NCBI GenBank assembly: GCA_035491715.1
Contig: DATJKH010000140.1
Span: 2,071-66,070 of the forward strand
From: Vicinamibacterales bacterium
Lineage (GTDB): Bacteria > Acidobacteriota > Vicinamibacteria > Vicinamibacterales > 2-12-FULL-66-21
Direction: 5' to 3'
Length of the DNA stretch: 64,000 nucleotides
Position 1 is the stretch's first letter. Each line of letters opens with the position of its first letter. The notes beneath the pieces are model-generated. The model had not been told where the DNA came from and did no database searches. It saw nothing but the letters and a program-made list of their open reading frames with translations. The position numbers and the translations under genes were made by a program. Positions 2,770 through 53,300 of the stretch are shown piece by piece.

Positions 2770-4473
2770 TCAATTCGTCTTTCTCTGTTTACCTGGCTTC
2801 CTCTGTGGTGAAGCCTCTCCGTTTCCTCGAGAACTACTCTGCTCTCTCCCCCGCCGGAAGGCGAGCATTTCCTTCGCGCTCGCCATGACGGCGGCCGAGA
2901 CATCGCTGCCGCCGATCATGCGCGCCAGCTCCTCTTCTCTTTTGACTCCTTCGACCCGCGCAACGTCGGTCACGGTTCGGCCGGTTCGGATGCTCTTTTC
3001 GATGCGATAGTGCGTCGAACCGTACGCGGCGATCTGTGGAAGGTGTGTGATACAGAGCACCTGGTATGTGGCGCCGAGGCGTTGCAGTCGCGCGCCGACC
3101 ACATCGGCGACGGCGCCTCCAATCCCGGCATCCACCTCGTCGAAGATGAGCGTTTTTCCCGGCGCGTCGGTGGACGCCAGTGTCTTCAAGGCGAGCATCA
3201 CGCGAGACAGCTCACCGCCCGAGGCGATGCGCGCCAGGGGCCGAAGATCCTCCCCCGGATTCGGCGAGATGTAGAACTCCCCGTCCTCGATTCCGCGCGC
3301 AGTCCATTCCGCCTCGGTCGGGGCCTCCGTGAATCGCACGTCACACCGGGTGCGGGTCATCGCCAGTTCGCCAAGCGCGCGTTCGAGTGCGCGCGAGAAC
3401 TCGACGGCCGCGGAACGGCGTTGGCTCGCCAATGCCTTGGCAGCCTGCAGATAGGCGTCCCCTGCCTGCGCCAACGCCCGATCGATCGTGGCGACGCGCT
3501 CGGTCGCATGCGTCAAGTCGTGCTGTTCGCGTCGCAGCGAATGTGCCTTGTCCAGTACCTCGGCAAGCGTGGCGCCGTGCTTTTTCTTCAGTCGTTCGAG
3601 CTGGGCGAGACGATCCTCGACTTCCTGCAGGCGCGCCGGGGACGCGTCGATGGCGCCGGAATACGAGCGAAGAAAGAAGGAGAGATCTTCCAGCTGCGAT
3701 TTCACTGCGTCGCGACCATCGAGATACGGAGCGAACCGCGTGTCCAGCGCCGCCAGATCACCCACCTTCTTCCAGACGACGCCGAGAGCCGGAAGTACGG
3801 CCGCGTCTCCTTCGTAAAGCGCGTCATAGGCTTCCGAGCAGAGCCGTTGCAGCCTGTCAGCATTCGCGAGCACGGTTCGCGTCGCCGACAGTTCATCGTC
3901 TTCACCAGGCTTGGGCGAGATGCGATCGATCTCGGCAAGCTGGAACGACAGGAATTCGAGACGCGAGGCTTTCTCGCGCTCGCCACTGACCAGGCGATCT
4001 CGTTCGGCCCGCACGGTCTCGAACGCGGCAAAGCGATCGCCGACCGCGCAACGTTGATCGCGGAGATTCGCAAATGCGTCGAGCACGTCGAGATGTGTCG
4101 ACGCGTCGAGCAACCGCTGGTGTTCGTGTTGCCCGTGGAGGTCGACAAGCGGTGAGCAGACGTCGCGCAGTGTCGCGGACGTCGCGAGCGCACCATCGAT
4201 CGACGCGCGGCTTCGTCCTTGTGCCGAGACTTCCCGCCTGACGATCACCTCGTCACCATCAGCCGTTTCGAAGATGGCTTCGACCGTAGCGGTTTCTTCT
4301 CCCGTCCGCACCAGATCGGCTGATGCGCGGCCGCCAACGAGGAGTCCGACGGCGCCCACCAGGATGGACTTCCCCGCCCCAGTCTCCCCGGTCAGCACGT
4401 TGAGACCGCTCTCGAACTCGAGTTCAAGCCGATCGATCACGGCCAGATTCCGGACGGAAAGAAAACGGAGCAT
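2770..4473 (-). CDS. recN: DNA repair protein RecN
   Basis: ORF 2770..4488. MLRFLSVRNLAVIDRLELEF...LTGETGAGKSILVGA (Walker A), coiled-coil middle, C-terminal SGGELSRVMLALK and LIFDEVDAGIGG. Start taken at ATG 4473. Confidence 0.93.
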   Translation of the reverse strand: MLRFLSVRNLAVIDRLELEFESGLNVLTGETGAGKSILVGAVGLLVGGRASADLVRTGEETATVEAIFETADGDEVIVRREVSAQGRSRASIDGALATSATLRDVCSPLVDLHGQHEHQRLLDASTHLDVLDAFANLRDQRCAVGDRFAAFETVRAERDRLVSGEREKASRLEFLSFQLAEIDRISPKPGEDDELSATRTVLANADRLQRLCSEAYDALYEGDAAVLPALGVVWKKVGDLAALDTRFAPYLDGRDAVKSQLEDLSFFLRSYSGAIDASPARLQEVEDRLAQLERLKKKHGATLAEVLDKAHSLRREQHDLTHATERVATIDRALAQAGDAYLQAAKALASQRRSAAVEFSRALERALGELAMTRTRCDVRFTEAPTEAEWTARGIEDGEFYISPNPGEDLRPLARIASGGELSRVMLALKTLASTDAPGKTLIFDEVDAGIGGAVADVVGARLQRLGATYQVLCITHLPQIAAYGSTHYRIEKSIRTGRTVTDVARVEGVKREEELARMIGGSDVSAAVMASAKEMLAFRRGREQSSSRGNGEASPQRKPGKQRKTN

Positions 4474-6668: not shown

Positions 6669-8039
6669 ATGCGAACACTCATCACCGGCATCGTGGTCGC
6701 GTCCGTCGGCTTGACGCTCGCGTCCCAGAATGCGCCACAGGGGAACCCCTCGCCGGCTCCCACCCAGCAGCCGGCGGAAATCCGTCTCACGATCAGCGGA
6801 CCACCGGGACTGCCGCCGAAATACGCGGTGCCCGATTTCATTCCCCTCACCAACGATCCGGAAACGGTCGCCGCTGCCAAAACAGTCGGTCAGGTTCTCT
6901 GGGACGACTTGAACTTCGAACGCGAGTTCTACCTGATTCCGCGCGACACTTACCGGACGATTCCGCCGGCGAGTTCAATCGATCATGTGCCGCTGGATCA
7001 ATGGAAGCAGCTCGGCGCCGACGGTCTCATCGTCGGCACCGTCAGAAAGACTCCGACCGGCGCCGCCGTGCAGGTGCGGCTAATCGAAGTGACGTCGGGG
7101 CAGACGGCATTCGGCAAAGAGTACAGCGGCACATTGAAGAACCCGCGGCTCTACGCTCACACGGCTTCCGACGAGATTCATCTGCAGCAGCGAAGTCTCA
7201 AAGGCGTGGCGCGCACGAGGCTGGCCTTCGCGTCCGATCGCGATGGCGAGCGTATGAAAGGCCCAATCGTCGATCGCGGCATCTCCAACATCTATATGTC
7301 GGACTACGACGGCGCCAATCAGCAGCGCGTGACGATTACCCGTTCGCTCGACATCACGCCTGCGTGGTCGCCTGATGCGAGGGCTATCGCTTACACGTCG
7401 TATCGCACGGGGTTCCAGGACATCATCGTTTCATACATTTACGAGGGGAAATACTCGAACCCCACGGCCGGGACCTCGGAGAGACAGAATTTCCTGCCTG
7501 CATGGTCGCCTGATGGGTCGCGGTTGGCGTTCACGTCGAATCGCGACGGTAACAGCGAGATCTACGTCATCAACCGCGACGGTAGCGGGCTAAGGCGTCT
7601 CACGAATCATCCCTCGATTGACGTGACGCCGACGTGGTCCCCGACGGGAAAACAGATTGCCTTTACCTCCGATCGCACCGGCTCGCCGCAGATCTGGGTC
7701 ATGAATGACGATGGATCCGAGCCGCGCAAAATCACGAACGAATCAAGATGTGATCGTCCGACCTGGTCGATTTCGCCGAACAACGAGATTGCGTACGCGT
7801 CACAGACCGGGGCTGGGTATGACATCCGTATTTACGATGTGGCGACGAGCGAGAGCCACACGATCACCGATGGCATCGGCAGCAATGAGAGCCCCGCATT
7901 TTCGCCGAACGGCCGTCACATCGCGTTCACGTCGACGCGGGCCGGCAAGGCACAGATCTTCCTGATCGACCGAGATGGAAAGAACCTGCAGCAGATCACC
8001 AGAACCGGCATGAACAGGTATCCAAACTGGTCGCAATAG
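6669..8039 (+). CDS. tolB: Tol-Pal system beta-propeller protein TolB
   Basis: ORF 6657..8039. Signal peptide MRTLITGIVVASVGLTLA and repeated PD40 motifs (PAWSPDG, PTWSPTG, PAFSPNG). Confidence 0.92.
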   Translation: MRTLITGIVVASVGLTLASQNAPQGNPSPAPTQQPAEIRLTISGPPGLPPKYAVPDFIPLTNDPETVAAAKTVGQVLWDDLNFEREFYLIPRDTYRTIPPASSIDHVPLDQWKQLGADGLIVGTVRKTPTGAAVQVRLIEVTSGQTAFGKEYSGTLKNPRLYAHTASDEIHLQQRSLKGVARTRLAFASDRDGERMKGPIVDRGISNIYMSDYDGANQQRVTITRSLDITPAWSPDARAIAYTSYRTGFQDIIVSYIYEGKYSNPTAGTSERQNFLPAWSPDGSRLAFTSNRDGNSEIYVINRDGSGLRRLTNHPSIDVTPTWSPTGKQIAFTSDRTGSPQIWVMNDDGSEPRKITNESRCDRPTWSISPNNEIAYASQTGAGYDIRIYDVATSESHTITDGIGSNESPAFSPNGRHIAFTSTRAGKAQIFLIDRDGKNLQQITRTGMNRYPNWSQ

Positions 8040-9608: not shown

Positions 9609-10040
9609 TTAAAACGGAATATCGTCGTCGGTCAGTTCCGACACGGGTTCCCCCATGTGTTCTTCGGCCGGCGCGGATGCCGCGCGGGGCTGTTGACGGG
9701 CGCCTCCTCCGCCGCCGCCAAGAAGTACGACGCGATCACCACGGATTTCCGTGGTGTAGCGCTTTGAGCCGTCCTTGTCGGTCCACTCTCGCGTCTGAAG
9801 TTTCCCCTCGACGTAGATCTGCTTTCCCTTCATCAGGTATTCGTTCAGGCTCTCGGCCGTCTTGCCCCAGAGGACGACGCGGTGCCACTCGGTTTTTTCC
9901 TGGCGCTGTCCGGCCTTGTCGTTCCACATCTCTGTTGTCGCCAGACTCAGCGTCGCGACCGGTGCGCCGCCAGGCGTGTAGCGAAGCTCGGCGTCGCGTC
10001 CGAGATTTCCAACAAGGATCACTTTATTCACGCTGCCCAT
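9609..10040 (-). CDS. ssb: Single-stranded DNA-binding protein
   Basis: 143 aa. [18 protein letters not shown], Gly-rich tail, acidic tip DDDIPF. Confidence 0.95.
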
Positions 10041-10048
10041 CGAAGCCT

Positions 10049-10083
10049 CAATTCACCATCACCAATTCACCAACTCACCAGTT
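10049..10083 (-). repeat. One-armed short-period tandem array (CACCAA/TCACCA units) ending 8 nt before the ssb ATG
   Basis: Sequence caattcaccatcaccaattcaccaactcaccagtt. Its last 17 nt recur exactly at 59176..59192. Confidence 0.65.
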
Positions 10084-10105
10084 AACAAGAGTCGCGCCAT
10101 TGTGT

Positions 10106-15581: not shown

Positions 15582-15587
15582 AAAGAA

Positions 15588-15680
15588 AGCTTCCAGCTCC
15601 CAGCTGTCAGCTTCCAGCTCACATTACTCGCAGCGTCCGCGTTCAGCAGCTGGTAGCCGGAAGCGGGAAGCTGGAACCTG
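15588..15680 (-). repeat. Heptad-periodic palindromic element (TNCCAGC units) between rpoN and hpf
   Basis: Plus-strand arm agcTTCCAGC TCCCAGC TGTCAGC TTCCAGC TCAC, ~21-nt loop, then the inverse arm CAGCAGCTGGTAGCCGGAAGCGGGAAGCTGGAACCTG. Confidence 0.8.
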
Positions 15681-17893: not shown

Positions 17894-20101
17894 CTATCGC
17901 GTCTCCGTCGGACACGCGATTGACGTCGCCACAGATCTGATTAGGTTGTTTCCGGTCATCGTGATGCTGTCGACGGCGCGCTGGAATTTGAGGACGGACC
18001 CGACCGACTTCTTGCAGTCGGGTGGCGCGATTTCGACAGCTTCGACCGGTGTTCCGGTCATGTGATACGTTTCGTCGCGGGCCAGATACGTCACACGGGC
18101 GCCAGTGGCCACGCGGCCGCCTTCCTTGACCACCACCGAACCATTCGCGCCATAGCCTTCGACGCGCTCGAGCTCATTGACGTCCTTCTTCATAAACAGC
18201 TCGAGCTTTTCGGCCGCGACGTCCCCCTGTGAACCGATCAGGTGCGCCTTGGTGGTGTAGGTCGCCAGACGTTTCGCGTCGTCGTACAAAAATGTTTCCG
18301 ATTCTCCAGTTGACTTCGTGCTCTTGCGCACATTGGTCTTCGGATCGACGTCGTCCATCATCATTTCGGTATGCACGTTGACGCGAGCTTCCAGGTTGCC
18401 GGTCTTATCGTCAACCACGATGGTGTCGGCGTTCACTTTGGTGACTCCCTGCCACAACCGGGAATTTCCAACGTAGACGGCGCGGCCTGCCAGCCCATCG
18501 TAGTCGAGCCGGTTGGACGTGACGGTGACGGGTTGGTCCTGCTGGAGCAGCGACGGGACGTGTGTGTCCGAACCGGATCGGTTCGCCGGGGTCTGACCCT
18601 GGTCTGACCCCGGTTTGACCCCGGTCTGACCCCGGTCTGGCCCCTTCTGCGGCAGCATGGACGTTCGCACTTTCGTGTCCGCTTTCAGCTTCCGCGTTCC
18701 AATCGAGAACTCGATCGTTCGCGCTTCGACGGTGACACGCCCGTCGCTCACCCGCGGGGCCGGCGGACCCGGATCCTGCGATGGCGACAGATCGATCTGG
18801 TCTTTGTCGACATGGTACAAGCCGTGAGTCGAGTCGGCCACGACCTGCGGACCGTCGGTGAAGTGCACGTTGCCGCGAAAGTCTGCCTGTTCGACCGCGC
18901 CAAACCCCGGCTTGGTCGTCACGATCAGGGTCATCGCGCGGGCCTGCCGATCGATCGCCGGCAGAGTGCCGCGTGCCGCGCGGATCTCGCGATAGTCGAC
19001 ATTGCCGCCAAACGTTGCGTTCTGCAGCCCCGTTCCCGGTGCGCCGGTGGCGTTCAAAGTCGCTGAACGAATCCGCTTTGCGGGTGAATCGCCGTCGGGC
19101 GGCAGGTCCACCTGGACGTTCTCCATCGCGTCGAGATTGGTCAGCGTCTTGCCATCTGGCGACATCGTCAGGTCGATCGTCTTCCCGGCGACCCGCTTCC
19201 CTGCACCGTTGCCTTCACCCGGCAGCTGGACGACCGCGTTTTCGACCAGATGCGAACGCTGGAGCGTGCGGCCATCGTCGCCGTAGGTCAGGTCGATGTC
19301 GCGAGCGGTCATCGATTGCGGACCGCCGTCGCCAGAGCCGGTGATCCGGCTGTTGTTGCGGAGCTGCAGAAGCTGGACGCGCTGATCGTCCTGGGTCAGC
19401 ATGATGGTGATGTCGTCGGCGTCGATCACCCGTCCTTCGGCAACGATATGTGCGCTTCGCGTCAGCTTCAGATAGTGTTCCGCTCTCGCGAGGCCGATCG
19501 TTTCGGCCCTGGCATCGATCGCGCCCTGACCTTTCTCGTCAGGCGTCACAGTCACGTGCGGCTGCGCCAACAGCCACAGCACTTCACGGTTGAAATCGTA
19601 GGTCGCTCCGACACCGGTTCCGTGCATACGACTACGCGTGAAGGCGACCGGTCCGGGTGCCTTGAGTAGTCCGGCCTGGTGATCATAGGTCGCGTCCTCG
19701 GTCGTGACCTCGGTGCCGTCGCTCGTCAGCTTGACCGCGCCGATGTAATGCGCCGTCTTCAAATCCTCACCAGCCTGAACCACCTCCGCCTCGTTGCTTC
19801 GAACCGTGAACGGCTTTCCATTTCTCTCCGACGTGATCTCGACACCATTCACCAGACGTGTGCGACCGTCGCTGTAGCTGCACTGGCCGCCAAACTTCAT
19901 GGAGAACACAATCTTGCCGTCTTTCGACTGCTTGATTTCGCCGCCCTGCATGTTTTCGAGAATGCAGTCCTTGTCGCGCCGCTCGGGCACGGCCGCGGCA
20001 GCCGGCGGCGCCTGACGCTGACGCAAGGCGATAGCGACGATCGCGATGAAGACGATCACGAACGCGGCGATAGCGAACCGGGCCTTTTTCTGCCAAGTCA
20101 T
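17894..20101 (-). CDS. Membrane-anchored LptC/LptA (OstA-like) multi-repeat protein, putative fused LPS-transport bridge
   Basis: 735 aa. Single N-terminal TM (FAIAAFVIVFIAIVAIAL), then several OstA-like repeats of the 'A..l.Yd......a.l.GnV' kind. Occupies the lptC-lptA position upstream of lptB. Confidence 0.7.
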   Translation of the reverse strand: MTWQKKARFAIAAFVIVFIAIVAIALRQRQAPPAAAAVPERRDKDCILENMQGGEIKQSKDGKIVFSMKFGGQCSYSDGRTRLVNGVEITSERNGKPFTVRSNEAEVVQAGEDLKTAHYIGAVKLTSDGTEVTTEDATYDHQAGLLKAPGPVAFTRSRMHGTGVGATYDFNREVLWLLAQPHVTVTPDEKGQGAIDARAETIGLARAEHYLKLTRSAHIVAEGRVIDADDITIMLTQDDQRVQLLQLRNNSRITGSGDGGPQSMTARDIDLTYGDDGRTLQRSHLVENAVVQLPGEGNGAGKRVAGKTIDLTMSPDGKTLTNLDAMENVQVDLPPDGDSPAKRIRSATLNATGAPGTGLQNATFGGNVDYREIRAARGTLPAIDRQARAMTLIVTTKPGFGAVEQADFRGNVHFTDGPQVVADSTHGLYHVDKDQIDLSPSQDPGPPAPRVSDGRVTVEARTIEFSIGTRKLKADTKVRTSMLPQKGPDRGQTGVKPGSDQGQTPANRSGSDTHVPSLLQQDQPVTVTSNRLDYDGLAGRAVYVGNSRLWQGVTKVNADTIVVDDKTGNLEARVNVHTEMMMDDVDPKTNVRKSTKSTGESETFLYDDAKRLATYTTKAHLIGSQGDVAAEKLELFMKKDVNELERVEGYGANGSVVVKEGGRVATGARVTYLARDETYHMTGTPVEAVEIAPPDCKKSVGSVLKFQRAVDSITMTGNNLIRSVATSIACPTETR
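18589..18643 (-). repeat. Five tandem copies of an 11-bp unit (GGTCTGACCCC consensus) inside the LptC/LptA-like CDS
   Basis: Units ggtctgaccct ggtctgacccc ggtttgacccc ggtctgacccc ggtctggcccc. Encodes ...GPDRGQTGVKPGSDQGQTP... Confidence 0.9.
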
Positions 20102-20111
20102 CTCGGTTGAA

Positions 20112-20174
20112 GTTACCAGTTGCCAGTTACCAGTTTCCAGTTCCGACGATTGAGGAGTGGAAACTGGAAACCGG
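20112..20174 (-). repeat. Heptad-periodic palindromic element (GTTNCCA units) between recJ and the LptC/LptA-like gene
   Basis: GTTACCA GTTGCCA GTTACCA GTTTCCA GTTCCGA, 12-nt loop, then GGAAACT GGAAACC GG. Confidence 0.8.
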
Positions 20175-20180
20175 CGACTA

Positions 20181-26394: not shown

Positions 26395-26467
26395 CTCAAT
26401 GTTCAATGTTCAATGTTCGATGTCCAATGGCGACCGCGATGCATTGCACATTAAACAGTGAGCATGG
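26395..26467 (-). repeat. Heptad-periodic palindromic element (TNCAATG units) between guaA and dnaE
   Basis: CTCAATG TTCAATG TTCAATG TTCGATG TCCAATG, loop, then GCATTGCACATTAAACAGTGAGCATGG. On the coding strand the 3' arm ...CATTGAACATTGAGT abuts the dnaE ATG. Confidence 0.85.
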
Positions 26468-45625: not shown

Positions 45626-45722
45626 CCATGTCCAATGCTCAATGTTCAATGTCCAATGTTCAACGACGTTGCGCATTAAGATTGAGCATCGAGCATTGGA
45701 CATTGGAACATTGAACATTGAT
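45626..45722 (+). repeat. Heptad-periodic palindromic element (TNCAATG units) filling the whole gap up to the speB ATG
   Basis: ccatg TCCAATG CTCAATG TTCAATG TCCAATG TTCAACG acgttgcg CATTAAG ATTGAGC ATCGAGC ATTGGAC ATTGGAA CATTGAA CATTGAT, immediately followed by ATG. Confidence 0.9.
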
Positions 45723-46613: not shown

Positions 46614-46615
46614 TC

Positions 46616-46643
46616 CGGGATCCGGTCCGCAAAACGGATCCCG
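46616..46643 (+). terminator. 9-bp hairpin CGGGATCCG-10nt-CGGATCCCG just after the speB stop
   Basis: Read directly. No strong T-tract. Confidence 0.4.
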
Positions 46644-46684
46644 CAAGTATCCGCTCCCCCTGTATACCTGCTATACTCCCCGCC

Positions 46685-49573: not shown

Positions 49574-49753
49574 TACTCGTCCTGCCAGCAGCTCGCAGGC
49601 GATGAGCGAGGAGCAAGCAGCTGGCAACTGAGTATCCAATCTCAGACCGAATTGGATAGCGAGTATTCATCTGCCAGTATGGTATAAGTCCACAGGCGCG
49701 TGACCTAACACTGAATTAATCAATTAGTTAACGACGGTAGTGGCAGTAACTGC

Positions 49754-50658: not shown

Positions 50659-51399
50659 TTACCCTTTCTTCGCCTCTTCCATCTCGCGCCGCGCGTCGGC
50701 GGCATACGCTGATGTCGGGAACTCTTCGACGACACGTGTAAACGCGTGCGCCGCCTCGGTCTTTTTCCCCGCTTTCATGTAGGCGCGCCCGAGCTGCATC
50801 AACACGCCGTCGAGCGGCAGCTGTGAGTTCGAATCTGTCGCCGCTTCCTGGTAGATCTTGATCGCGTTGTCGTATTTGCCCTGCAGCACCTGTACGTCGG
50901 CCAGTCCGAGCTTCGCGGTGCGACCGTAGACACGGTTGCCGGCCTTGTCGACCACTTCCTTATAGCGTTGCTCCGCTTCGGTGTAGCGTCCAAGCGCCGC
51001 GAGAACGCCGGCCGCGTGATACCGCGCTGTAATCCCCGCGTCTGTACTCGGATACGCATCCGCTGCTTTAATCAACTCCGGCAACGCCGCTTCAAGCTTG
51101 GCTTGCTCGGTTGGATACGTGCCGGCTTGCTGCACTGGAATGGGACTGCCTGGCGCCGGCGCCGACGGCGCGATGACCTGGGCTTCTTCAACCGCGAGGG
51201 CAGAGGCAAGCAGTCCGTTCGCTTTCGCATTGCGCGTCTGGCGCCACAGGGCGAAGCCGCCTGCCAGAAGCAACGCGACGACGATCACTGTCGCGTAGGT
51301 GGTGACTTCGCGGCCTCGCGTCTGCATCAAGTCGCTCGCATGAGCGACGGTTCGCGCGAACTCGTTTTCCTTGAGCTTGTGCCGTTCTTTGCTTTTCAT
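50659..51399 (-). CDS. Membrane-anchored TPR protein (YfgM-like architecture)
   Basis: 246 aa. Basic N-terminus, one TM (YATVIVVALLLAGGFALW), C-terminal TPR repeats. Confidence 0.6.
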   Translation of the reverse strand: MKSKERHKLKENEFARTVAHASDLMQTRGREVTTYATVIVVALLLAGGFALWRQTRNAKANGLLASALAVEEAQVIAPSAPAPGSPIPVQQAGTYPTEQAKLEAALPELIKAADAYPSTDAGITARYHAAGVLAALGRYTEAEQRYKEVVDKAGNRVYGRTAKLGLADVQVLQGKYDNAIKIYQEAATDSNSQLPLDGVLMQLGRAYMKAGKKTEAAHAFTRVVEEFPTSAYAADARREMEEAKKG

Positions 51400-51413
51400 G
51401 ATGTTGTTCGAAA

Positions 51414-51487
51414 TGCGCCCGGCAGGTCTCGAACCTGCGACCCCCGGTTTAGGAAACCGATGCTCTATCCTGCTGAGCTACGGGCGC
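51414..51487 (-). tRNA. tRNA-Arg (anticodon CCT), CCA not encoded
   Basis: Reverse complement GCGCCCG TA GCTC AGCAGGATA GAGC A TCGGT TTCCTAA ACCGG GGGTC GCAGG TTCGAGA CCTGC CGGGCGC A folds as a 74-nt cloverleaf with GTTCGAGA in the T-arm. Confidence 0.9.
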
Positions 51488-51524
51488 GGCAAACGAGCAT
51501 TTTACCGCATAACTGCTTTAGCGC

Positions 51525-52040
51525 TCAGTACTTGAGCACCACATGAATCGTTTCCCCCGGTAGCTTCGACCGTCCGTTGAGGGCGACGAGTTCGATAAGA
51601 AACGCAACTCCTTCGACCACGCCACCGATCTGCTTGACGAGATCCACTGTCGCTTTCGCGGTCCCGCCAGTGGCGAGCAGATCGTCGACGATGAGGACGC
51701 GCTGACCGCGCTCGATCGCGTCGCTGTGCATCTCCAGGCTGTCGGTGCCGTATTCGAGGTCGTAACTCGCCCGGATGCGGTCCGACGGCAGCTTTCCGAC
51801 TTTACGCACCGGCACGAACCCCGCCCCAATTCGGTCGGCGACCGCAGAGCCGAGAATGAATCCGCGACTCTCGATCCCGACGACCAGACTGATCGCTTTG
51901 TCCTGAAACGGCGTCGCGACGCTATCGATGGCGAGCCGGAACCCTGCCGGATCCCGCAGCAGCGTCGTGATGTCGTAGAAGAGAATTCCCGCCTTTGGAA
52001 AATCCGGGACGTGGCGAATCTTTGATTTCAGAGCTTCCAT
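51525..52040 (-). CDS. apt: Adenine phosphoribosyltransferase
   Basis: ORF 51525..52121 trimmed to ATG 52040 (MEALKSKIRHVPDFPKAGILFYDIT). PRPP motif VLIVDDLLATGGTA. The 27 extra codons are translated heptad repeat (GNWKLGTGNWKL). Confidence 0.92.
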   Translation of the reverse strand: MEALKSKIRHVPDFPKAGILFYDITTLLRDPAGFRLAIDSVATPFQDKAISLVVGIESRGFILGSAVADRIGAGFVPVRKVGKLPSDRIRASYDLEYGTDSLEMHSDAIERGQRVLIVDDLLATGGTAKATVDLVKQIGGVVEGVAFLIELVALNGRSKLPGETIHVVLKY

Positions 52041-52042
52041 AA

Positions 52043-52126
52043 GTTTCCAGTTTCCAGTTCCCAGTTTCCAGTTCCCAGCAGTACATCTCTGCACTGGCAA
52101 CTGGAGACTGGAAACTGGCAACTGAC
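52043..52126 (-). repeat. Heptad-periodic palindromic element (GTTNCCA units) between acyP and apt
   Basis: GTTTCCA GTTTCCA GTTCCCA GTTTCCA GTTCCCA g, 13-nt loop, then CACTGGCAACTGGAGACTGGAAACTGGCAACTGAC. About 28 of 31 positions are complementary in the best register. Confidence 0.9.
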
Positions 52127-52142
52127 ACGCAACTTCAAGCCA

Positions 52143-52415
52143 TCATCGTGTCGAGAATCCGGTTGCGCGGTGTGTCGGTTGTGTGTCCTCGACGTCGAAC
52201 GATTCCACGTCCGCGTGCGAGGGGCCCCGGCGGAGCGCGAGCTCCATTCGATCGACCGCGTCGTTATCGCCTTCCATCAGCACTTCGACGCGGCCATCAG
52301 GAAGATTGCGCGCATACCCGTGGATGCCTTCCGCGGCAGCGCGCGCCGCGGCAAACATCCGGAAGCCGACGCCCTGCACGCGGCCGCCGATAAGAACCCG
52401 CCGCGCCACGATCAT
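52143..52415 (-). CDS. acyP: Acylphosphatase
   Basis: ORF 52143..52601 trimmed (ATG 52415, alternative 52439). VLIGGRVQGVGFR and YARNLPDGRVEV signatures. Confidence 0.85.
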   Translation of the reverse strand: MIVARRVLIGGRVQGVGFRMFAAARAAAEGIHGYARNLPDGRVEVLMEGDNDAVDRMELALRRGPSHADVESFDVEDTQPTHRATGFSTR

Positions 52416-52454
52416 GAAACGCTCATTATAGCGGCTCATGGTACAGTTCGTCGC

Positions 52455-53300
52455 ATGCCTCGCATCGGGTCGACCAGCCACGGTGAGTCCCGCCTCAGAA
52501 TGCTTCGCGTCACACGCCGTGGAGACCGACACGATCCGAAAGAACTCTCGGTGTCGTGTCGGTTCGAGGGAGCGTTTGCCGCAGCGTTTCGTCAGGGCCA
52601 AGCCGACGGCTTACCCCCCGGCGAGGCGCTCAAGAATCTCGTCCACCGCGCGGCGCGCGAACATGGATCCTGCGAGATTGAAGAGTTTGGTCTGGCGATC
52701 TGCGATCGCATCCTCAAGGACTATCGCGCGATCACGCGCGCACGGGTGGAAATCAGCGAGCGCGCATGGATGCGGCTCGACGCCGGCGGTCGCCCGCAAG
52801 GGCAGGCGTTTCTTGCCGGTTCCCCCGAAGTCAAAACCACAGCCGTGACGAGTAACGGAAAACAGATCGCGGTCGTCTCGGGCGTCGATGCCTTGAACGT
52901 GATGCGGACATCAGGGTTCGTTCCGCGCGAGGGTGCCGCAGTCGACGACGGTCGACACGACGGACTGCAGCGGCTCCTGGTCGGCGAGTTGTGCGGCCGG
53001 TGGACGTACAGCAGTCCGGACGTGACGTTCCGCCCGTATCGACAGGGAGTCCGTGCGGCGATCGTCGAGACGTTTGCCTGGCATTCCGGTCGATCCGTCC
53101 ATCACACTCTCTACGCCATCGCCGATGTCGTGCTCGCGACGTATCAGGAAATCGCCGATGTCACGCTGACGTTCCACGAGCGCCCGTACCGCCCCGCCGA
53201 TCTTTTCAGCACCGGCATGGAGAATCCCGACGACCTGTTCGTCTCGGTGGAAGAACCGCTCGGCGTGGTCGAGGTCACGGTTGAACGAGAGATCTCGTAG
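52455..53300 (+). CDS. Urate oxidase (uricase) family T-fold protein
   Basis: ORF 52170..53300 trimmed to ATG 52455. HGESRLRMLRV resembles the YGK..VR..RV start. LNVMRTSGF.., SVHHTLYAI and HERPYR blocks parallel uricase motifs. Divergent, so the call is moderate. Confidence 0.55.
   Translation: MPRIGSTSHGESRLRMLRVTRRGDRHDPKELSVSCRFEGAFAAAFRQGQADGLPPGEALKNLVHRAAREHGSCEIEEFGLAICDRILKDYRAITRARVEISERAWMRLDAGGRPQGQAFLAGSPEVKTTAVTSNGKQIAVVSGVDALNVMRTSGFVPREGAAVDDGRHDGLQRLLVGELCGRWTYSSPDVTFRPYRQGVRAAIVETFAWHSGRSVHHTLYAIADVVLATYQEIADVTLTFHERPYRPADLFSTGMENPDDLFVSVEEPLGVVEVTVEREIS

Follow-up and report, generated by a model that had tools for sequence, protein, structure and literature searches.

Tandem repeats of a seven-nucleotide unit are the commonest long simple sequence repeats (SSRs) in many free-living bacteria. 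The element considered here lies in a 64,000-nucleotide stretch of DNA from an uncultured Vicinamibacterales bacterium of the phylum Acidobacteriota (GenBank assembly GCA_035491715.1, contig DATJKH010000140.1, positions 2,071 to 66,070 of the forward strand), referred to below as the window. There it occupies almost the whole of the 102-nt spacer between acyP and apt, which encode an acylphosphatase and an adenine phosphoribosyltransferase. This acyP-apt element is best filed as an inverted, hairpin-forming, spacer-filling acidobacterial form of the known heptanucleotide SSR phenomenon. The observations taken together are probably explained by a non-coding heptanucleotide SSR palindrome (CCAGTTN / NAACTGG) that originated by slippage and template switching, is transcribed as an intercistronic hairpin, and has a structural effect on the initiation of apt translation.

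Arrays of the heptamer TAACTGA are found in marine Beggiatoaceae, some cyanobacteria and Bacteroidetes, in 2-8 forward copies that end mostly 1 nt before a start codon and are not accompanied by a Shine-Dalgarno (SD) sequence (MacGregor 2015, PMC4679880). Translational regulation has been proposed as their function; only one inverted set was reported among 170, and the variant TAACTGG is not repeated in that genome (PMC4679880). Like these arrays, the acyP-apt element has a 7-nt unit with an AACTG core that is forward-oriented, start-proximal and free of an SD. Unlike TAACTGA, which is a fixed unit in direct repetition, the unit NAACTGG has a free position, and 14 nt further upstream on the transcript there is an inverse array (4.6 copies); moreover, one genome holds several units that are unrelated to each other, and the organism belongs to a different phylum. 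The TAACTGA dimer (TAACTGATAACTGA) is absent from the window, even with two mismatches. The closest structural match to the Beggiatoaceae arrays is found at another locus, L108, where a direct-only (CTGGNAA)x8 array (3249-3304) fills the whole spacer from TAG to ATG.

Heptanucleotide long SSRs (LSSRs; Mrazek et al. 2007, as summarised in PMC4679880) and the heptamers among the short tandemly repeated repetitive (STRR) sequences of cyanobacteria are, as far as the summarised accounts go, described as direct arrays. Their intergenic position, occurrence at many loci and lineage-specific abundance, and the dominance of period 7 among non-coding tandem repeats, are all shared by the repeats described here. 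The acyP-apt element itself is a tandem 7-nt unit repeated beyond chance, intergenic and of the dominant period, and belongs with the LSSR/STRR heptamers on these grounds. It differs from the direct arrays of those accounts in that the array is paired with its reverse complement a few bases away, and in that such pairs fill intercistronic spacers; the literature that could be searched contained no account of systematic pairing of this sort. Two heptamers of Nostoc PCC 7120, ttgtcag and attgcga, are relevant to the units themselves, and ATTGCGA has been reported 79 times (PMC2408588, Table 3). The former resembles the CAGTTGN of the acyP-apt element, and a palindrome at the related locus L002 (543-738) has the unit GCGAATT/AATTCGC, a rotation of ATTGCGA. 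Since these units are near-identical, the same heptads recur in distant phyla.

A heptamer repeat that acts through structure is known from the 5' untranslated region of Haemophilus influenzae hmw1A, where a transcribed (ATCTTTC)n hairpin is cleaved by RNase III, affecting expression (PMC12721329). As in that system, a heptamer SSR supplies an arm of a long hairpin that lies shortly before a coding region, and the acyP-apt element can be said to have hmw-type features, namely a long predicted hairpin, a heptamer-repeat arm and a presumably transcribed leader. However, for hmw1A it was shown by experiment that structure and not sequence controls expression, whereas the acyP-apt element is known from its sequence and predicted fold. 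The partner arm in hmw1A is a non-repeat G-rich stretch, while both acyP-apt arms are repeats. Also unlike the phase-variable hmw1A, the acyP-apt spacer is identical in four conspecific contigs, which is a weak test given their divergence of ~0.1%. The long, near-perfect duplex is, by analogy, a plausible candidate substrate for RNase III.

Repetitive extragenic palindromic (REP) sequences, and the bacterial interspersed mosaic elements (BIMEs) that they form, are a further point of comparison. REPs are units of 20-40 bp with a genome-wide consensus and an associated RAYT transposase, for which roles in mRNA stabilisation and attenuation have been proposed. Like them, the acyP-apt element and its relatives are extragenic, hairpin-forming, apparently transcribed, and situated between co-oriented or convergent genes. 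The tetranucleotide at a REP end is GTAG or CGTC (PMC3733652), and neither is present at either end of 52040-52130. Membership of the REP/BIME class fails on other counts as well, as only the 7-nt unit is shared between elements (and not always), loops and flanks are unique, and the units differ at orthologous sites. A literature search found no description of paired inverted heptad arrays in Acidobacteria; the searchable literature is incomplete, so this absence is not proof.

The features of the acyP-apt region are as follows, in the order of the minus strand, which is the sense strand for both genes.
52143-52439, minus: upstream cistron acyP (acylphosphatase, 98 aa), ending in a TGA stop at 52145-52143; the 5' arm follows after 17-19 nt.
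52137-52141, minus: GGCUU directly after the acyP stop, predicted from the centroid and pair probabilities to pair with AAGCU of apt codons 2-3 (52032-52036).
52093-52126, minus: 5' arm on the transcript, GUCAGUU GCCAGUU UCCAGUC UCCAGUU GCCAGUG, ~4.6 heptads of CCAGUUN, supported by Tandem Repeats Finder and as an inverted-repeat arm, and paired in the predicted fold.
52079-52092, minus: apical region, CAGAGAUGUACUGC, of unique sequence and predicted to form a small helix of 3 bp.
52042-52078, minus: 3' arm on the transcript, CUGGGAA CUGGAAA CUGGGAA CUGGAAA CUGGAAA CU, 5.3 heptads, predicted to be paired at P>0.95 save for periodic 1x1 mismatches.
51525-52040, minus: apt, adenine phosphoribosyltransferase, 171 aa, start ATG at 52040-52038, supported by NCBIfam apt equivalogs, homologues and gene calls.

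On the plus strand, 52043-52077 reads GTTTCCA GTTTCCA GTTCCCA GTTTCCA GTTCCCA, and Tandem Repeats Finder reports 52042-52078 as AGTT[T/C]CC with period 7, 5.3 copies and 90% matches. The inverse array (52093-52124, period 7, 4.6 copies) has the unit ACTGGAA / ACTGG[N]A. The initial annotation, which had described inverse GTTNCCA-type heptad arrays at this position, is thus supported by the sequence itself, by both repeat analyses and by the predicted fold. Its figures require slight correction: the best ungapped inverted repeat, 52042-52072 against 52093-52123, is complementary at 27 of 31 positions (87%) rather than about 28, and the gap between the arrays (52079-52092) is 14 nt rather than a 13-nt loop. 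The dimer pattern GTTNCCAGTTNCCA, with at most one mismatch, occurs 12 times in the window against an expectation of 0.08, a count that none of 100 shuffles reaches. The 3' arm is 68% purine. As had also been noted, it stops just before the apt start, its final base being 1-3 nt from the AUG; the sense strand there reads ...CUGGAAACUGGAAACUU AUG, with the array forward-oriented and no SD between array and start.

The position of the apt start decides whether the array is coding. The longest ORF, of 198 aa, begins at a TTG at 52121 and reads through the array as ...AGNWKLGTGNWKLMEALK, but the NCBIfam apt profiles align only from residue 28-31 of this ORF, and Met28 corresponds to the ATG at 52040. 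Apt residue 1 is where the alignment begins in almost all of the 160 related loci retained from collections of genomes and metagenomes; in the few exceptions the alignment begins within the first residues, or a contig end cuts the gene. Independent gene callers also give an apt of 171 aa on four conspecific contigs. Because apt starts at ATG 52040, the array is, on this sequence evidence, non-coding, and the N-terminal extension ...GNWKLGTGNWKLM is an artefact, as the initial annotation had supposed; an extended apt with a coding array is ruled out by the profiles, the homologue alignments and the gene calls alike.

The two genes are adjacent and on the same strand in nearly all relatives, where they are usually separated by a stop-start overlap or by 2-60 nt (e.g. 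TGACCATG, ATAATG), or by a spacer with AAGGAG or GGAGA. Neither a sigma-70-like promoter nor an intrinsic terminator was detected in 51300-52700. Since acyP-apt adjacency is the rule in the order, and no promoter or terminator is found at the spacer, we infer co-transcription of acyP and apt, with the element present in their RNA. An intrinsic (Rho-independent) terminator at the element itself is excluded by the lack of a U-tract, as the hairpin stem is followed on the transcript by UUAUGGAAG.

The minus (sense) RNA from 52146 to 52026 has a predicted folding energy of -54.2 kcal/mol, compared with -31.5 +/- 3.0 for dinucleotide shuffles (z -7.5), and the plus (antisense) strand one of -48.2 kcal/mol (z -7.4). 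The predicted main stem is ~31 bp long with three 1x1 mismatches, two of which fall at the variable heptad position. A single register dominates the ensemble (28.7 expected pairs, with registers shifted by +/-7 nt negligible), ruling out for this element a 'slippery' hairpin with several 7-nt registers. As regards the pairing that an operator at a ribosome-binding site (RBS) would have, the ensemble is mixed: -36 to -7 relative to the apt AUG is paired at P>0.95, there is no canonical SD, the last six nucleotides before the AUG and the AUG itself are 40-96% unpaired (the AUG alone 55-96%), and codons 2-3 lie in the outer helix formed by GGCUU and AAGCU. This helix, which is only 5 bp long and could be due to chance, closes the base of the structure and so brings the acyP stop and the apt start to the foot of the predicted hairpin. 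Such a geometry would resemble translational coupling by ribosome-mediated unfolding, and is partly unavoidable for a palindrome that fills its spacer. At the Rfam 15 gathering threshold only a tRNA passes in the whole window, and a search of the element region in E-value mode gives sub-threshold matches to miRNA precursors on both strands, as for a generic hairpin.

The acyP-apt element is not alone, as at least five heptad palindromes are present in the window, each filling a same-strand intercistronic spacer.
15586-15680, minus: element 1, AGCTNCC / GGNAGCT palindrome in a same-strand spacer; sense strand -52.0 kcal/mol, z -3.2.
20111-20179, minus: element 2, AGTTNCC / NAACTGG palindrome filling the spacer from stop 20181 to ATG 20101; z -4.6.
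26396-26465, minus: element 3, CATTGAA-type (TCAATGT) palindrome filling the spacer from stop 26470 to ATG 26393; AUG predicted to be paired in the stem foot; z -5.4.
45626-45722, plus: element 4, CAATGTT / AACATTG palindrome from TAG 45625 to the speB-like ATG 45723; AUG predicted to be paired in the stem foot; z -6.8.
52042-52126, minus: element 5, AGTTNCC, the acyP-apt element; z -7.5.

These five elements have three different units and unrelated loops and flanks, and the sense strand is the more stable in four of the five. In elements 1, 3 and 4 the predicted pairing partners of the downstream AUG lie 0-10 nt past the upstream stop. Translational coupling through an RNA structure that is opened by the upstream ribosome is established for rpmI-rplT and for the MS2 coat and replicase genes. 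The pairing of a start region near an upstream stop is a point of likeness, clear in elements 1, 3 and 4 and weak (5 bp) in the acyP-apt element. Unlike those systems, which have conserved unique sequences and a demonstrated function, the geometry here may simply follow from a palindrome that fills its spacer. A separate observation is that the CAATG arrays place several AUGs in the leader.

A repeat census was made over 1.37 Mb, comprising the window and 80 apt loci, for arrays of at least 2.8 copies, with an inverted partner counted when it lay within 60 nt.
Period 6: 45 arrays, 2 with an inverted partner.
Period 7: 107 arrays, 44 with an inverted partner (41%).
Period 8: 40 arrays, 9 with an inverted partner.
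Period 9: 57 arrays, 5 with an inverted partner.
Periods 10-12: 30 arrays, none with an inverted partner.

Period 7 is the commonest non-coding tandem repeat (127 non-coding against 21 coding, with at most 39 non-coding for any other period), and none of the 36 merged elements lies inside a gene. The Acidobacteriota loci contain 29 elements per 1.0 Mb, whereas the other taxa contain 2 per 0.37 Mb, both on a single contig, L055; per 100 kb, the clade as a whole has ~3 and the window 8. The units are diverse and include NAACTGG, AGCTGG, CAATGTT, CAGCAAT, CATTCAG, GCGAATT, AAAACCG, CGGATCC, ATGAACC and others. Because their loops and flanks are unique, the heptad palindromes are not copies of one mobile element. 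As to L055, which is labelled Acidimicrobiia, it carries at 3713-3810 nearly the same ATGAACC palindrome upstream of apt, in the same gene order, as Vicinamibacterales locus L054 at 6699-6802, and judging from this similarity the contig is probably mis-binned.

A comparison of the acyP-apt site among relatives points to rapid turnover. Most relatives have no repeat at this site, and only L001 (Apt 92%) shares the unit of the acyP-apt element there; its 5' arm has 3-4 copies and its 3' arm 8, and one of its units, at -21..-17, is CTGGAGA. The 5' arm of L001 is short, and its predicted fold leaves the three start-proximal units and CUUUCUUUU unpaired. The acyP-apt spacers of other relatives are as follows.
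L002 (Apt 93%): CAATGTT/GAATGTT array, with the ancestral GGAGAGATGAATCGCTG leader kept.
L085, 6533-7000 (Apt and AcyP 94%), the closest non-conspecific relative: spacer of 468 nt.
L003, L004, L005 and L008: no repeat.
L092: direct-only CGCGAAC, 7 copies, then AAGGAGAT and a TTG start.
L093/L095: direct-only GTTCGCG, the reverse complement of CGCGAAC (6 copies in L093), then AAGGAGAT and a TTG start.
L142, L017 and L054: palindromes of other units.

The L085 spacer contains long-range inverted octad arrays (CGAAGAAA ... TTTCTTCG) around nested hairpins, with a predicted -263 kcal/mol for 450 nt. By their sequences, the L092 and L093 arrays resemble the remnants of both halves of a single ancestral palindrome, or an inversion. 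Within the species, four independent conspecific contigs have an identical 102-nt spacer, against a background of ~5 SNPs per 6.5 kb.

Two sites around speB suggest how such elements change. At the speB-upstream site, that of element 4, a heptad palindrome is present in six lineages, and its unit drifts through CAATGTT, GATTGCT, AATGCTG, ATTGCGG and AAAACCG, with both arms changing together. Downstream of speB the window has a plain 10-bp hairpin (46615-46645, CCGGGATCCG...CGGATCCCG), while the orthologous positions in L001 (9538-9645) and L002 (19362-19517) have expanded heptad palindromes (CGGATCC; GTTTTNG/AAAACCN). The hairpin is followed in all three by a conserved promoter-like CTGTATACCTGCTATACT (46660-46677 in the window). 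From these comparisons it looks as if the repeats arise in spacers that are short or on hairpins already present, lengthen by slippage and retain the match between their arms. It might be speculated that the CTGGRAA unit was seeded from an ancestral leader, CGGAGA(T)GGAACA, as found in L003, L005, L008, L086 and L088; the L086 leader reads ACGGAGA ACGGAAC. However, loci that are unrelated have this unit too, which speaks against an origin that is purely local. A mobile element resembling a REP or a MITE (miniature inverted-repeat transposable element) was also considered, and was rejected: each element has its own loop and flanks, the units are not the same, a head motif is lacking, and no target duplication is seen on comparison with the empty L003 site.

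The acyP-apt element is thus, by sequence comparison, a member of an abundant and evolutionarily short-lived class of elements in the intergenic spacers of Vicinamibacterales; this copy is young and poorly conserved and has no sign of a dedicated function. The suggestion that it is a dedicated regulator of apt did not survive the comparison, which places it as one member of a clade-wide repeat class with fast turnover. On the reading that we favour, replication slippage would have expanded the 7-nt unit, and template switching within the strand would have copied changes between the arms of the quasi-palindrome. Intrastrand template switching in quasi-palindromes is an established mutational mechanism, and because it copies changes from arm to arm, the arms could grow and drift together without selection. 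The transcript would fold into one dominant stem of ~31 bp that fills most of the 102-nt spacer and pairs -41 to -7 before the apt AUG, with the acyP stop and the apt start at its foot, and this hairpin would have replaced an ancestral short spacer with a stop-start overlap or an SD. Its most likely effect would be structural: apt initiation would be SD-independent and limited by structure, and would depend on the opening of the stem foot, either by a ribosome terminating on acyP or by double-strand processing of the RNase III type, while the GGAA runs would not be recognised as an RBS. We lean towards a structural effect that is tolerated or weakly selected.

Several observations weigh against this explanation. 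With 17-19 nt between the acyP stop and the main stem, a ribosome that terminates on acyP would open no more than the 5-bp outer helix. The two strands have nearly the same folding strength (z -7.5 and -7.4), so that an RNA-level role is not separable from the DNA palindrome, and across the clade only 12 of 21 elements have the more stable fold on the sense strand. The elements are distributed over spacer classes without bias (17 co-directional, 6 convergent and 3 divergent, against 62, 19 and 19% of spacers). The four conspecific contigs vary in no copy number, which speaks against very high slippage, although with ~0.1% background divergence the test is weak. Finally, NAACTGG, CAATGTT and CAGCAAT recur at unrelated loci and in unrelated genomes, which purely local slippage does not explain.

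The initial annotation had instead proposed that the GGAA/GGGA runs of the 3' arm serve as the apt RBS and are sequestered in the stem, which implies that the 5' arm is a dedicated anti-RBS and that translation is under structure-dependent control. Part of this holds: a non-coding hairpin abuts the AUG, and the runs are the only purine-rich, SD-like sequence in the spacer and lie in the region paired at P>0.95. The purine-rich arm is 1-3 nt from the AUG, repeat-free relatives have GGAGA or AAGGAG at the equivalent place, and L001 retains its single CTGGAGA unit. The identification of the runs as an RBS is, however, weakly backed, since GGAA matches the conserved anti-SD by only ~3 nt (GGA; the anti-SD is taken from general knowledge, as there is no 16S gene in the window), palindromes without GGA (CATTGAA and CAGCAAT) occupy the same position before other genes, and the start-proximal units of L001 are unpaired in its predicted fold. 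An SD-like 4-mer is found at -18..-7, with a peak at -13..-9, in only ~29% of confidently called genes of the clade; SD-independent initiation is therefore common, and an apt without an SD would be in the company of ~71% of genes. As CCAGTTT arrays are also found directly behind stop codons and oppositely oriented, the AUG is about half open in the ensemble, the sequestering pairing is not kept in orthologues and most relatives lack the element altogether, we consider RBS sequestration rather unlikely. In another model, which is quite improbable, the direct array near the start would be bound by a protein or the 30S subunit (S1, or a factor of the cold-shock or CsrA type) and would promote SD-independent initiation, a role also proposed for the TAACTGA repeats, with the inverted array modulating access. 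NAACTGG does share its AACTG core with TAACTGA, whose arrays likewise end mostly 1 nt before starts (PMC4679880), the L108 array is direct-only and fills its spacer from stop to ATG, and the 3' arm is longer than the 5' arm in L001, L099 and element 2 of the window. Arrays of NAACTGG or AGCTGG are sense and start-proximal at 9 loci, but arranged otherwise at 4, a split that is not significant, and start-proximal arrays in general have no purine bias (20 against 18). Against this model, the window contains no exact TAACTGA dimer, sites of this kind are taken up by many units that are unrelated, and even TAACTGA has no identified binding factor.

A hairpin of the REP/BIME kind at the 3' end of acyP, which would protect the acyP mRNA from 3' exonucleases or act as an attenuator without a U-tract and so set the acyP:apt ratio, is unlikely, though several observations speak for it. 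In co-directional spacers the median distance is 7 nt from the upstream stop to the 5' foot and 24 nt from the 3' foot to the next start (paired Wilcoxon p=0.03), and because the 5' foot is nearer to the stop than the 3' foot is to the start, the consistent neighbour of these elements is a stop codon and not a start. Six elements in convergent spacers directly follow stops, and the plain hairpin downstream of speB precedes a promoter-like box and has orthologues expanded into heptads. Nevertheless, the acyP-apt element has one of the largest gaps between stop and stem (17-19 nt) and no U-tract, the avoidance of divergent spacers expected of REP-like elements is not significant (3 of 26 against 19% expected, p=0.26), and there is no common consensus, GTAG/CGTC head or conserved loop. 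A role at the DNA level only, in which the transcript would play no part and a cruciform, a slipped strand or an array bound by protein would influence replication, supercoiling or recombination, is very improbable: both strands fold equally well, and across the clade there is neither strand asymmetry nor a bias in spacer class, but repeats of 7 bp do not keep phase with the DNA helix, the unit differences from site to site argue against one binding protein, and the sense strand is the more stable in four of the five window elements. A rather improbable extension is that these palindromes are a clade-wide functional device, in which inverted-array hairpins bridge long spacers, hold the stop and start at their foot, and either keep termination-reinitiation coupling or make an RNase III site; the start-proximal arm (NAACTGG and others) would then be the acidobacterial counterpart of a TAACTGA-type SD-independent enhancer, and the upstream arm an anti-enhancer. 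If this were true, the near-identical units of distant phyla (the AACTG core, ATTGCGA) would point to a shared recognition factor or a shared repeat-generating mechanism.

Returning to the reading of a slippage-born, transcribed hairpin, its interest extends beyond one spacer. The class of heptad palindromes is abundant in a major soil lineage and apparently undescribed, and soil Vicinamibacterales, which are abundant and mostly uncultured, carry heptad repeats at high density in paired, hairpin-forming form. If the hairpins matter for expression, they would constitute a widespread, fast-evolving post-transcriptional layer in an organism in which most genes lack an SD, with a link to the TAACTGA repeats of other phyla. 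If they are neutral, they would provide a clean natural system for palindrome growth by slippage and template switching.

The element also carries a warning for annotation, as longest-ORF calling runs through heptad arrays, giving here the 198-aa 'apt'. A further warning comes from the strand opposite acyP, where in the public gene call for L081 (1741-2871) a uricase ORF is 376 aa long and swallows acyP. The calls for L082 and L083 give instead an acyP of 98 aa and a uricase of 266-281 aa (equivalent to window region 52143-53300), and the window ORF at 52170-53300 has the same ambiguity as L081. Downstream of apt, a tRNA gene (51414-51487, minus, 65.6 bits) follows 37 nt after the apt stop on the same strand and may share its transcription unit.

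Other repeats in the window depart from the paired heptad pattern. At 10041-10085, with the minus strand as sense, a direct-only array of ~8-nt units (UGGUGAAU-type) without an inverted partner lies directly upstream of GAGG and an ATG, before the gene at 9609-10040. Five tandem copies of an 11-mer, GGTCTGACCCC, are found at 18586-18644 (90% matches) and are partly self-complementary; they lie inside a 735-aa ORF (17894-20101, minus), and in coding sequence a repeat length not divisible by 3 is odd. In the spacer after a sigma-54 activator gene, a weak inverted repeat (49617-49674, 71%) contains CAGCTGGCAACTGAG and, judging by this motif, may be a decayed NAACTGG element. At the orthologous position in L004 (12847-12888), a direct CCAGTTT array is present in the sense orientation, right after a stop codon.

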